Origin: Candidatus Saccharimonadota bacterium
GTDB taxonomy: Bacteria; Pseudomonadota; Gammaproteobacteria; Enterobacterales; Enterobacteriaceae
DNA length: 6,337 nt
Direction: 5' to 3'
Assembly (NCBI RefSeq): GCF_012571795.1
Contig: NZ_CP046223.1
Coordinates: 1-6,337 of the forward strand
Below, one piece after another: positions 2,899 to 6,230 of this stretch. The position numbers were made by a program, and so were the translations under genes. The notes beneath the pieces were generated by a model. The model saw only the letters and a program-made list of their open reading frames with translations, did not search any database and had not been told where the DNA came from. Position 1 is the first letter of the stretch, and each line of letters begins with the position of its first letter.

Positions 2899-2935
2899 AT
2901 AATTTTATTATAAAAAATATATTATTTTTGATCTA

Positions 2936-2957
2936 AAATAATATTTAAATATTATTT
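2936..2957. repeat. Perfect 22-bp palindrome AAATAATATTT|AAATATTATTT in the adhesin-polygalacturonase spacer (possible weak terminator hairpin or operator)
   Basis: The sequence equals its own reverse complement when read directly. It lies 38 bp after the ORF1 stop and 52 bp before the polygalacturonase ATG. No function is established. Confidence 0.4.
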
Positions 2958-3008
2958 AATTATATAATAATATGTAATTATAGTTATACTATATATTTAT
3001 AATAAAAA

Positions 3009-3098
3009 ATGAAAAAATTATTTTTCTATAAAAAAATATTGCAAAAAACAGTTATTTTAGCTATAGCATTATTTTTATTTCATACTAAATTATTTGCT
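3009..3098 (+). other. Predicted Sec signal peptide of the polygalacturonase (…LFHTKLFA | EDKRHVQEP)
   Basis: Basic N-terminus (KK..KK), the hydrophobic stretch TVILAIALFLF, and an A at -1. The predicted mature N-terminus aligns with the mature N-terminus of PehA. Confidence 0.65.
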
Positions 3099-4283
3099 GA
3101 AGATAAACGTCATGTACAAGAACCAATTATACCTAAAACTTGTAAAATTTTAGAAGCAAATGATCAAGATTCAACAAATATCTTACAACAAGCAATTAAT
3201 GTTTGTGCTAAACAACATCAAATTGTTCATTTAATATCTCATAATAATAAAAATATTTTTTACTCAGGTCCTTTAAATATCCCTTCTTATGGTGGTCTTT
3301 TAATTGATAAAACAGTAATATTAAAATCTATAAATGACCCTAATCTTTATAATATTAATAATAATCAAGATTGTGGTACATTAAATAATTCTGGTAAGGG
3401 ATGTAAACCATTTATTACTATTAATGGTGAAAATAATGGTATTTATGGCAATGGTTATATAGATGGACAAGGAGGGCATATTTTAAAAAATAAAAATTTT
3501 ACCTGGTGGCAATTAGCTACAGAAGCTAAATTAAAAAATAAAAAACAAAATGCTCCACATTTAATTGATATTAATAATAGTAAAGACGTTGTTTTATATA
3601 AAATTCATTTAATAAATTCACCAAATTTTCATATTGTTTCTCATAAAACAAATGGTTTAACAATCTGGGGTATTAGTATTAATACCCCAGCAGATGCACG
3701 TAATACTGATGGTATCGACCCCTCATCTTCACAAAATATAACTATTACACACACTAATATTAGTACTGGAGATGATAATATTGCAATAAAAGCAGGTAGT
3801 ACAGGAGAATCAAAAAATATTAGTATTATAAATAATAATTTTGGATATGGTCATGGTATGTCTATAGGCAGTGAAACACAAAGTGGTGTAAATAATATTT
3901 TAATAACAAATTTATCTTTAATAAATACTACAAATGGGTTAAGAATTAAAAGTGATAGTACAAAAGGTGGATTAGTAAATAACATATATTATAAAAATAT
4001 TTGCATGTTTAATGTTAAAAATCCTATTGTTTTAGATGCATTTTATAAAATTGTAAAAATAAATGGGGAACATATTCCTCAATTTAATAATATATATTTT
4101 GAAAATATTAGTGTATTAACACCAGGGCAATTTGTTTTTAATGGTTTTGATGTTAATCATATTATACAAGTTTTTTTTAAAAATATACATATACATCCTG
4201 GATCTATATGGACAAAACATAATGTTCATATTAATGGATCTATAAACTATGATACTAATGCAGATCATTGCCCTAATATGTAA
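3009..4283 (+). CDS. pehA: Secreted endo-polygalacturonase, glycoside hydrolase family 28 (PehA-like pectinase)
   Basis: All GH28 signatures are present and in frame: NTDGID (3702-3719), GDD in TGDDNIAIKAG (3768-3776), GHGMSIGS (3849-3872) and RIK in GLRIKS (3942-3950). The protein is collinear end to end with my recollection of Pectobacterium carotovorum PehA, for example EPIIPKTCKIL vs EPKTPSSCTTL, GKGCKPFIT vs GKGCDAFIT, IDGQGG, KQNAPHLIDINNSK vs KQNTPRLIQINKSK and LINSPNFH in both. Confidence 0.93.
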   Translation: MKKLFFYKKILQKTVILAIALFLFHTKLFAEDKRHVQEPIIPKTCKILEANDQDSTNILQQAINVCAKQHQIVHLISHNNKNIFYSGPLNIPSYGGLLIDKTVILKSINDPNLYNINNNQDCGTLNNSGKGCKPFITINGENNGIYGNGYIDGQGGHILKNKNFTWWQLATEAKLKNKKQNAPHLIDINNSKDVVLYKIHLINSPNFHIVSHKTNGLTIWGISINTPADARNTDGIDPSSSQNITITHTNISTGDDNIAIKAGSTGESKNISIINNNFGYGHGMSIGSETQSGVNNILITNLSLINTTNGLRIKSDSTKGGLVNNIYYKNICMFNVKNPIVLDAFYKIVKINGEHIPQFNNIYFENISVLTPGQFVFNGFDVNHIIQVFFKNIHIHPGSIWTKHNVHINGSINYDTNADHCPNM

Positions 4284-4288
4284 TTTTA

Positions 4289-4936
4289 TTAAGGAGAATT
4301 AATTACAATAAAACGAGTTTTATTATTAATAATATTAGATATATTATGTTTTATTACATATAAATTATAGAACTTAGCTGCTATTTTATTACTAATAGCA
4401 GCTAAGTTACTATTTGTGTTACAGAATGATATATATTGTAATGCATAAGAAGAACTAGAAGAATATTTAATATTCCATGAATATTTCTTAATAAACATAC
4501 TACATTGCTTTAATGGTTGAGGGTGACTAATAATGGTTGTAATATTATTTAAAATTAAATTATTGTTATTACTAATTAAACAATGGTTAATAGGCATATC
4601 AAAATAAAAGAATATTTTTACACTATTTTTTTGTATCAATGTATATACATCTTTTATTATACCAGTATAATTATTTATTAAAGGCACTATAGAATAGTGA
4701 GCAACTTTTAATTTTAGAGTATGAAATATTTCTATAAAGTTATTACAAATAATATTAATAATAATATCTGTATTGTTTTTTAAATGTTTTTTTATATAGT
4801 ATAGAGTTGCTAAATGTGAATAACTACCAATAGGTCCTAAAAAAGAAAAAGTAATAATATTATTACTTTTTCTAAATTCTTTATTATTTAATAAAGAATT
4901 ATACTGTATATATAAAATATTATTTTTAATAGACAT
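4289..4936 (-). CDS. pheA: Prephenate dehydratase catalytic domain only (PheA P-protein derivative lacking the chorismate mutase and ACT domains)
   Basis: FLGPIGSYSH (4814-4843; E. coli FLGPKGSYSH), IVPLINNYTGIIKDVY (E. coli VVPIENTSSGAINDVY), ISHPQPLKQCSMFIKKY (SHPQP at 4514-4528; E. coli YSHPQPFQQCSKFLNRY) and the catalytic TRF motif (4310-4318). The ORF ends 6 codons after TRF. Only about 27 aa precede the PDT domain. Confidence 0.8.
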   Translation of the reverse strand: MSIKNNILYIQYNSLLNNKEFRKSNNIITFSFLGPIGSYSHLATLYYIKKHLKNNTDIIINIICNNFIEIFHTLKLKVAHYSIVPLINNYTGIIKDVYTLIQKNSVKIFFYFDMPINHCLISNNNNLILNNITTIISHPQPLKQCSMFIKKYSWNIKYSSSSSYALQYISFCNTNSNLAAISNKIAAKFYNLYVIKHNISNIINNKTRFIVINSP

Positions 4937-5029: not shown

Positions 5030-5920
5030 TTATTTTTTAATTATATGCACAAAATCATTCTTATCGATCCAACATTTCCATCCTGTTGCTTTATTGACAT
5101 CTAATAATGATTTTTTTAAATTTTGTCTAAATTTCCATAATAATTTAGTTGTACTACCACATAATTTATTTAATGTACTTACTTTATAACACAAAGGAAT
5201 TTTATGTGAACAATAAAAACAATGTATCCATTGAGATAAATATTTGCCTTTTAATTGTTTTCTTTCTTTTAAAGAAATTGCTGTCCACATTTCATCAGTA
5301 AAAAATGTTACTATCTTCTTATTTAAAACAATAACATGTTTTTTATTATTATTAATATTTCTATACCATTCATGTAATAAATGACCTATATAAAAACTAT
5401 TCTGATAACTAATTTCTATAACACATATAGATAATCTTAATAAACAAGATTTTAACCATTTATAATCTTTAGTCCCAGTACTTCTATCTATAGAACGTAA
5501 AAATGAATAAGTAGAAAATTCTACTTTATCACCTATAGGAACAGTATACCTATGTAAACATTCTAACCAAACATCTAAATCTGATTGATCTAATTGTTCT
5601 CCAGTAAAACGTATATATATACCCTGTAAAGAAAATTTTAAAATATTTTTTTCATATTTACGCTGTCCTTTCTTAATAACACTAAATAGAGAACTACGTA
5701 ACATAATATTAGGAATCACTCTCTTACTGTGTGATAAAAATGGTATAACATTATTATTTTCGTCATAATCTAAATGATAATTAACATTTTTTTTTGATTT
5801 ATAACGTACTAAGACTGATTTATCTTTAGCATTATTGCTAAAGCAATAATGCTTATTGTTATCATTATAGTTCGCTTTTTGAACTAAAGAATTTATTCTA
5901 TCGTATATTGATTTACACAT
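5030..5920 (-). CDS. trfA: Plasmid replication initiator, TrfA family
   Basis: IPNIMLRSSLFSVIKKGQRKY...IRFTGEQLDQSDLDVWLECLH and LSQWIHCFYCSH..P..YKVSTLNKLCGS...LWKFRQNLKKSL match the conserved TrfA blocks as recalled (PN..LRSALF...R.Y...I.YTG..LDQ.DLDVW and LAQWLH.FY.SH..P...KVETL..LCGS....FR..L..AL). The gene lies 140 bp from a tandem iteron array. Confidence 0.85.
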   Translation of the reverse strand: MCKSIYDRINSLVQKANYNDNNKHYCFSNNAKDKSVLVRYKSKKNVNYHLDYDENNNVIPFLSHSKRVIPNIMLRSSLFSVIKKGQRKYEKNILKFSLQGIYIRFTGEQLDQSDLDVWLECLHRYTVPIGDKVEFSTYSFLRSIDRSTGTKDYKWLKSCLLRLSICVIEISYQNSFYIGHLLHEWYRNINNNKKHVIVLNKKIVTFFTDEMWTAISLKERKQLKGKYLSQWIHCFYCSHKIPLCYKVSTLNKLCGSTTKLLWKFRQNLKKSLLDVNKATGWKCWIDKNDFVHIIKK

Positions 5921-6047: not shown

Positions 6048-6060
6048 TAGATTTAATCAT

Positions 6061-6170
6061 CAGGATAGCAAGTAGCAATAATCAGGATAGCAAGTAGCAA
6101 TAATCAGGATAGCAAGTAGCAATAATCAGGATAGCAAGTAGCAATAATCAGGATAGCAAGTAGCAATAAT
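6061..6170. repeat. Replication-origin iterons: five perfect tandem 22-bp direct repeats (CAGGATAGCAAGTAGCAATAAT)
   Basis: Units start at 6061, 6083, 6105, 6127 and 6149. All are identical and contiguous with no spacers. Each unit contains two TAGCAA half-sites 7 bp apart. The array is adjacent to a TrfA-family rep gene. Confidence 0.9.
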
Positions 6171-6230
6171 CATTTATAATCATTTATAATCATTTATAAT
6201 CATTTATAATCATTTATAATAATTTATAAT
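6171..6230. repeat. Five perfect plus one degenerate tandem 10-bp repeats (CATTTATAAT); probable DNA-unwinding element of the origin
   Basis: Perfect copies sit at 6171, 6181, 6191, 6201 and 6211, with a variant AATTTATAAT at 6221. The repeats are 90% A+T, have a period close to one helical turn and directly abut the iterons. Confidence 0.75.

Follow-up and report, generated by a model that had tools for sequence, protein, structure and literature searches.

A plasmid-encoded polygalacturonase in the symbiont of the reed beetle Neohaemonia nigricornis and a candidate control element upstream of its gene

A stretch of DNA of 6,337 nucleotides (contig NZ_CP046223.1; the whole stretch is referred to as the window) carries, at positions 3,009 to 4,283, a gene for a polygalacturonase (PG) of glycoside hydrolase family 28 (GH28). 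The extremely AT-rich surroundings of this gene raise the question of which bacterium keeps a pectin-degrading enzyme there, whether the enzyme can still act, and how it would leave the cell and be controlled. An earlier interpretation drawn from the letters only (the sequence-only reading) had proposed a secreted enzyme of the PehA type, located on a TrfA plasmid and maintained by purifying selection in a digestive symbiont of a herbivorous beetle.

The window is the entire plasmid, already present in GenBank, of the Enterobacteriaceae endosymbiont of Neohaemonia nigricornis, a reed beetle (Donaciinae). It contains four long open reading frames (ORFs), identified by the ORF list and Pfam, which encode an adhesin, the GH28 enzyme, a prephenate dehydratase-domain protein and TrfA. 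An exact-sequence look-up found all four proteins identical to NCBI records of the N. nigricornis symbiont, each of them a single-member cluster; the records of the GH28 enzyme are QJC30636.1 and WP_208754617.1. The plasmid of this symbiont has been reported as 6,337 bp with 20.1% GC (Table 1, Reis et al. 2020, Nat Commun 11:2964, PMC7289800), and the GC content across the whole window was 20.06%. The identification as the complete plasmid follows from the four exact proteins together with this agreement in size and GC. Megablast of the window against PLSDB produced partial matches only (77-81% identity), to the symbiont plasmids of M. mutica and P. pusilla.

A 2020 study had already sequenced and described the plasmid and its enzyme, with partial biochemical tests; the sequence-only reading, including its attribution to a digestive symbiont of a beetle, was therefore correct about something already known. 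We are highly confident that the gene encodes a plasmid-borne endo-polygalacturonase (pPG) of an obligate gammaproteobacterial symbiont with a reduced genome ('Candidatus Macropleicola' group), whose host is the aquatic reed beetle N. nigricornis. To the published work we add an FNR-like box that is conserved upstream of the gene, a third pair of cysteines that covary in the enzyme, and an intact, previously undiscussed invasin-like gene beside the GH28 gene.

Identity, activity and conservation of the enzyme

The gene and its catalytic residues are:
3009..4283, plus strand: GH28 polygalacturonase (pPG), 424 amino acids, intact, with ATG start and TAA stop
Catalytic residues of pPG: D234/D255/D256, H282, R312, K314 and Y346

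The protein matched Pfam Glyco_hydro_28 (PF00295) over positions 9-318 of the 324-position profile, scoring 204.5 bits (cut-off 22.9; E = 2.9e-60). The four catalytic motifs named in the sequence-only reading were all present (NTDGID at residues 232-237, GDD at 254-256, GHGMSIGS at 281-288 and RIK at 312-314). Across an alignment of 120 homologues, D234, D237, D255, D256, K314 and Y346 were invariant, the catalytic Asp residues being unsubstituted throughout, while H282 was retained in 118 and R312 in 108. The catalytic residues of pPG align with D202, D223, D224 and H251 of the Pectobacterium PehA structure 1BHE (numbers counted off the alignment).

PehA was also the best match of pPG in the PDB (1BHE; E = 3.6e-105), with residues 32-408 aligned to residues 2-374 and small gaps only. 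An AlphaFold2 model computed from a 36-sequence alignment reached a mean pLDDT of 93.3 and a pTM of 0.89, and its top Foldseek match was again 1BHE [template modelling (TM) score 0.97, target-normalised; root-mean-square deviation 1.2 Å; 47% identity]. According to this model, the fold is a right-handed parallel beta-helix. We conclude that pPG belongs to GH28 and that the full catalytic machinery and fold are present. The proposed collinearity with PehA thus holds over most of the protein; the C-terminus, in contrast, is not strictly PehA-like, as pPG carries an extension of about 15 residues including Cys421 that is missing from Pectobacterium PehA and from the Erwinia enzyme.

Family membership does not by itself settle the mode of action, since GH28 includes exo-enzymes and 3jur and 2uve appeared among the structural matches; pPG might accordingly be an exo-polygalacturonase or an oligogalacturonide hydrolase. 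We regard this as extremely unlikely, because the match to the endo-enzyme PehA was far above those to exo-polygalacturonases (TM 0.48-0.71, target-normalised; ~20% identity) and pPG lacks the large insertions of 2uve. Moreover, the recombinant M. mutica orthologue (Mmut-pPG) showed endo-polygalacturonase activity, breaking polygalacturonic acid down to dimers, trimers and longer oligomers, and the trimming of oligomers has been assigned to a separate chromosomal PG (Reis et al., PMC7289800). Pectin was likewise digested by gut extracts of PG-carrying species (PMC7289800). By analogy with the M. mutica orthologue, to which it is 65-67% identical, pPG would hydrolyse alpha-1,4-polygalacturonate.

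A phylogeny, which the sequence-only reading had suggested as a check, placed the enzyme among those of reed-beetle symbionts. In a neighbour-joining (NJ) tree (Kimura distances, 100 bootstraps), the Donaciinae pPGs formed one clade (100/100) and the PGs of 'Candidatus Stammera capleta', the symbiont of tortoise beetles (Cassidinae), formed another (100/100); the two were sisters (91/100), and Neohaemonia grouped with Macroplea (83/100). This topology agrees with the published tree, where the plasmid PGs make up the clade closest to the Stammera PG (PMC7289800). The gene order adhesin, GH28, pheA, trfA was common to seven PG-carrying plasmids, the others being those from M. mutica, M. appendiculata, D. 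piscatrix, D. tomentosa, D. provostii and D. versicolorea. Both its position between adhesin and pheA on a TrfA plasmid and its monophyly with the reed-beetle pPGs assign the N. nigricornis enzyme to the Donaciinae-symbiont pPG clade. It is one of the 'Candidatus Macropleicola' pPGs, 62-67% identical to its orthologues and without categorical difference from them; the biochemical assay within this group is that of Mmut-pPG only.

The genome of each reed-beetle symbiont consists of a chromosome (454-517 kb) and a plasmid (5.0-6.8 kb); GH28 enzymes are encoded on plasmid, chromosome or both, Neohaemonia having both kinds (PMC7289800). The presence of PG tracks feeding on pectin-rich Nymphaeales and Alismatales, and PG has been lost in feeders on Poales (PMC7289800). 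One retained digestive enzyme explains why the beetle keeps the bacterium, and loss of the enzyme tracks host-plant switches.

Selection on the four plasmid genes was compared by the number of nonsynonymous substitutions per nonsynonymous site (dN, NG86 method) across the symbiont plasmids of N. nigricornis, M. mutica, D. piscatrix and P. pusilla:
GH28: dN 0.22-0.32
trfA: dN 0.19-0.31
pheA fragment: dN 0.40-0.57
Adhesin: dN 0.49-0.72

The constraint on pPG was thus approximately that on the replication gene trfA, about twice that on pheA and about two to three times that on the adhesin, which supports purifying selection as it had been proposed from the letters.

These values also bear on the possibility that pPG is a decaying relic, its ORF kept after function or secretion had been lost in this host lineage. 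Such decay would be in line with the repeated loss of PG in the symbiont group (three plasmid and four chromosomal losses; PMC7289800) and with the strongly AT-shifted composition of the enzyme (N+K+I 35.6%, vs 23.1% in a Pectobacterium PG), and the biochemical evidence comes from an orthologue rather than from the Neohaemonia enzyme. We nevertheless consider a relic very unlikely. The gene contains neither frameshift nor stop, the protein has kept every catalytic and structural residue, six cysteines among them, dN is equal to the value for trfA, and the confident AlphaFold model superimposes on 1BHE at 1.2 Å. In addition, a PG that has become dispensable, as in Poales feeders, was deleted and not kept, and Neohaemonia eats pectin-rich Alismatales (PMC7289800).

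Export and cysteine pairs

Features of the enzyme that bear on its secretion and folding are:
3009..3098, plus strand: Sec-type signal peptide by sequence reading, residues 1-30 (MKKLFFYKKILQKTVILAIALFLFHTKLFA), cleavage predicted before E31
Cysteine pairs of pPG: 45/66, 122/132 and 332/421
Nucleotides 4002-4004 and 4269-4271: codons of C332 and C421

Read by eye, the signal peptide consists of a basic n-region (MKK..KK), a hydrophobic core (TVILAIALFLF) and KLFA with its small residue at -1, followed by E. The predicted cleavage between MKKLFFYKKILQKTVILAIALFLFHTKLFA and ED coincides with the first residue of the mature 1BHE chain, as the alignment starts at residue 32 of pPG and residue 2 of the chain; conservation of the signal peptide, another claim of the sequence-only reading, is thereby corroborated. 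In the gene table of PMC7289800, all 26 symbionts have entries for SecA, SecY, SecE, Ffh, FtsY, signal peptidase I and BamA. By its sequence features, pPG is predicted to be a Sec-dependent secreted protein.

The second step, across the outer membrane, is less clear. The PehA enzymes of soft-rot bacteria are secreted via the Out type II system. A text search of the gene table of PMC7289800, which covered a possibly truncated copy of the table and not the chromosome, gave zero occurrences of 'secretion', gspD and tolC. No type II system that would take pPG as an Out/Gsp substrate is evident from this table text, which is weak evidence. The export question raised by the sequence-only reading is genuine and still unsettled in the literature searched. 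For Stammera the same gap has been acknowledged, and release of whole cells by "squeezing" of the symbiotic organ was proposed (PMC11059521). With no sign of a type II system, the candidate exit routes for pPG are the shedding of vesicles, leakage through the envelope and lysis of the cell. The remaining value of the locus lies in part here, in the export route of a periplasmic enzyme from a cell that apparently has Sec and Bam only.

Two of the cysteine pairs, Cys45/66 and Cys122/132, are the pairs of PehA and have been kept in pPG. The third behaves differently: Cys332 and Cys421 are both present in 107 of the 120 homologues and both missing from 13, which include Pectobacterium and Erwinia, with zero mixed cases. 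Because this covariation is perfect, a third disulfide is predicted; it points to a Cys332-Cys421 bond that would tether the C-terminal extension to the beta-helix. The subclade with this pair comprises beetle-symbiont enzymes, enzymes of Klebsiella, E. coli and Phytobacter, and the horizontally acquired enzymes of stick insects.

A text search for dsbA, disulfide and thiol in the gene table of the Supplementary Data of PMC7289800 (in a possibly truncated copy of it, not in the chromosome itself) found none of them. The table seems to contain no Dsb-type names, which leaves the formation of disulfides in pPG to be explained.

We propose that the pPG preprotein would be exported by Sec and cut after Ala30 by signal peptidase I, and that it would fold in the periplasm with three disulfides. 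After crossing the outer membrane by one of the candidate routes named above, it would be delivered from the symbiotic organs at the Malpighian tubules to the gut of leaf-feeding adults. Homogalacturonan would be hydrolysed by inverting acid/base catalysis via D234, D255 and D256.

Several points weigh against this interpretation. Only one of four recombinant PGs (Mmut-pPG) was assayable (PMC7289800), and the activity of the Neohaemonia enzyme is assigned by orthologue. The proportion of synonymous differences (pS) was ~0.42-0.54 whatever the pair, i.e. saturated, as expected from third positions that are almost only A or T; the ratio omega for GH28 (0.31-0.36) is therefore an upper bound only, and the argument for selection stands on relative dN. 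The sister grouping of reed-beetle and Stammera enzymes could be inflated by a shared AT-driven amino-acid bias. Finally, the absence of a type II system, Dsb and TolC was read from the text of a possibly truncated gene table and not from chromosome sequence.

A conserved box upstream of the gene

Upstream of pPG, the following elements are proposed:
2928..2941, plus strand: TTGAT-N4-RAYAW box (TTGATCTAAAATAA), candidate site of an FNR/CRP-family activator, 81 nt upstream of the ATG
2963..2968, plus strand: TATAAT, a putative -10-like hexamer, 35 nt past the start of the TTGAT box

We aligned the region between adhesin and GH28 genes of the seven PG-carrying plasmids (homologous sites of box and hexamer are in plasmids L001 and L003-L007). 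Mean column identity was 40%, and TTTTTGAT was the only invariant block of eight columns. In each of the seven plasmids, the box was 74-85 nt upstream of the start codon, and its pattern occurred nowhere in the PG-less P. pusilla plasmid. The FNR consensus is TTGATnnnnATCAA. TTGATCTAAAATAA matches it at 8 of 10 positions, with a range of 7-9 over the seven plasmids. A TAnnnT hexamer was found at an offset of 35-36 from the start of the box in every plasmid, and was a perfect TATAAT in four. With a -10-like hexamer at this offset, the centre of the box would fall near -41, which is the class II geometry of FNR and CRP. Transcription of pPG would then probably start from an activator-dependent promoter with an FNR-like half-site centred near -41.

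Such a promoter would fit published data on gene content. Among 26 symbiont genomes, fnr alone was present or absent in step with the pectinases, and control of the pectinases by FNR was proposed (PMC12508126); the paper contains no mention of "binding site" or "TTGAT". The box may provide a link to these data in the following scenario: a retained regulator of the FNR family switches on the plasmid pectinase via TTTTTGAT-N4-RAYAW, centred about 41 bp upstream of a conserved TATAAT, and the enzyme exits without a type II system, through vesicles, a leaky envelope or lysis. Taken as a whole, this scenario appears rather unlikely to us; if true, a rare mappable pair of transcription factor and target would have survived in a genome of ~0.47 Mb.

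A simpler explanation is that the TTTTTGAT block is a plain sigma-70 -35 element (or a UP-like AT tract with a -35), and that the gene is constitutive and tuned, if at all, by plasmid copy number. TTGATC matches TTGACA at four of six positions, and TATTAT follows 16 nt downstream in the N. nigricornis plasmid. PG dose is modulated by plasmid copy number in Stammera (bioRxiv 10.1101/2023.12.12.571295). Furthermore, in a 2025 follow-up, expression of the plasmid PG was biased towards adults in D. versicolorea but not in M. mutica, where pPG is not stage-regulated (PMC12508126); this lack of adult up-regulation also counts against the overall interpretation of pPG given above. However, the hexamer at an offset of 22-24, which would be needed if TTGAT served as -35, is found in three of the seven plasmids only, as opposed to all seven (four of them with perfect TATAAT) for the offset of 35-36. 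Positions of the second half-site are also partly conserved, with A at +4 in 7/7, A at +5 in 6/7 and C or T at +3. We regard a constitutive promoter as a serious possibility, short of probable.

Activation by an FNR-family regulator faces further difficulties. Of the two half-sites, the 5' one is invariant across all seven plasmids, but the 3' one is weak, with 2-4 of 5 positions matching. In DNA this rich in AT, chance alone would yield the degenerate pattern of the box about once per plasmid, and the pattern was defined on the very sequences in which it was then counted. We treat the FNR-like box as a reasonable lead, not a finding. Its value would be that of a handle on regulation in a severely reduced genome.

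Neighbouring genes, replicon and related systems

The other features of the plasmid are:
1..2898, plus strand: inverse autotransporter adhesin of the intimin/invasin type, 965 amino acids (PF11924, PF05688, PF05689), the upstream neighbour of GH28
4289..4936, minus strand: pheA fragment, prephenate dehydratase domain only, 215 amino acids (PF00800, E = 7e-42)
5030..5920, minus strand: trfA, replication initiator (PF07042, E = 6.8e-13)
6055..6230, no strand assigned: presumed oriV, 22-bp iterons (AATAATCAGGATAGCAAGTAGC) followed by 10-bp AT-rich repeats
Adhesin gene in other plasmids: L001 1-2664, L002 118-2808, L003 1-2841, L004 1-2745, L005 124-3006, L006 1-2829 and L007 1-2916

The adhesin comprises an IAT_beta barrel, which matches 4e1t and 4e1s, a BIg21 domain and a C-terminal InvE_AD lectin-like adhesion domain, its C-terminus matching 5n40. 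Its ORF was intact in all eight reed-beetle symbiont plasmids, the PG-less P. pusilla plasmid included, with lengths of 887-971 amino acids. The protein evolves fast (29-42% identity); yet 91 alignment columns are invariant, among them Cys885/Cys963 and four Trp. The gene is missing from the original GenBank annotation of the plasmid and has a RefSeq WP_ accession only, and the reed-beetle papers and supplements searched make no mention of autotransporter, invasin or intimin. The adhesin is a candidate factor for attachment to or entry into host cells, in a symbiont that alternates between extracellular stages in the gut lumen and intracellular stages. The role of this invasin-like neighbour adds to what the locus still has to offer.

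The pheA product matches positions 89-283 of the 386-position model of bifunctional PheA, with 145 bits against a cut-off of 577. It has neither the chorismate mutase domain nor the C-terminal ACT domain for feedback by Phe; the gap of 93 nt between pheA and trfA leaves no room for the former. Loss of the regulatory domain would make the synthesis of Phe insensitive to feedback. GH28 and pheA are convergent; their stop codons are 5 nt apart (4284-4288), and in D. piscatrix and D. provostii the two genes overlap by 4 nt. Downstream of GH28, no intrinsic terminator was detected. Given the convergent 5-nt gap and no detectable terminator, read-through and antisense transcription are likely.

The match of trfA to its Pfam family and the iterons adjoining it uphold the proposal of a TrfA plasmid. 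TrfA was 66.5% and 62.5% identical by tblastn to the annotated TrfA proteins of the M. mutica and P. pusilla plasmids, respectively (74% and 67% by global alignment). The 22-bp iteron occurs in 5.4 copies at 6055-6172 and the 10-bp AT-rich repeat in 6.5 copies at 6166-6230, together 135-310 bp upstream of trfA. These features assign the plasmid to theta replicons of the TrfA/iteron (RK2) type, with TrfA presumably binding to the repeats. The description of the DNA as AT-rich, devoid of Shine-Dalgarno sequences and rich in N, K and I was equally accurate. GC at third codon positions was 8-12.5% over the four genes, N+K+I made up 29-45% of residues in their products, and the 30 nt preceding each of the four gene starts contained no AGGA, GGAG or GAGG.

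A closely related system is that of Stammera, in which the PG, the sister of pPG with 50-57% identity, resides on a plasmid of 4-8 kb in a bacterium with a tiny AT-rich genome and no obvious secretion system. The Stammera enzyme shares the C-terminal extension and the Cys332/Cys421 pair with pPG. The genetic codes differ: Stammera uses code 4 (bioRxiv 10.1101/2023.12.12.571295) and reads TGA as Trp, as seen from in-frame TGA at Trp positions of its PG ("TW*NLA" in a table-11 translation), whereas the N. nigricornis plasmid genes have 18 TGG and zero in-frame TGA. Homologues of TrfA, pheA and the adhesin were not detected by tblastn (code 4) in two Stammera plasmids (L009, CP043976.1, and L010, CP144851.1). 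Because GH28 alone is shared with these two plasmids, the sister pectinase genes appear to ride on unrelated replicons. In Stammera, plasmid copy number varies and rises with the feeding stages of the host (bioRxiv 10.1101/2023.12.12.571295). The suggestion made from the letters that plasmid location raises gene dosage could extend to N. nigricornis by analogy only.

Pectobacterium carotovorum PehA (1BHE), the structural reference, shares with pPG the fold, the catalytic Asp triad, His, Arg, Lys and Tyr, collinearity over 377 residues, the same two N-terminal disulfide pairs and the cleavage position. Unlike pPG, it lacks the extension of ~15 residues and the Cys332/Cys421 pair. The pLeu and pTrp plasmids of Buchnera resemble the N. 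nigricornis plasmid in placing a host-beneficial gene on a small replicon of the multicopy type in an obligate insect symbiont, an analogy already drawn in PMC12508126 and bioRxiv 10.1101/2023.12.12.571295. They carry biosynthetic genes, whereas the N. nigricornis plasmid carries a secreted digestive enzyme, an adhesin and a pheA fragment.

A further GH28 gene was present on a Logan contig (L008, SRR27871537, 478,069 bp) at 8001-9269, encoding a protein 54-55% identical to pPG, beside a pectate lyase of family PL1 at 6186-7133. The 17-kb stretch around them has 38% GC and sparse gene calls. In the NJ tree, this GH28 and another Logan sequence were sister to the clade of reed-beetle and Stammera enzymes. 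The contig may belong to another pectinolytic insect symbiont.

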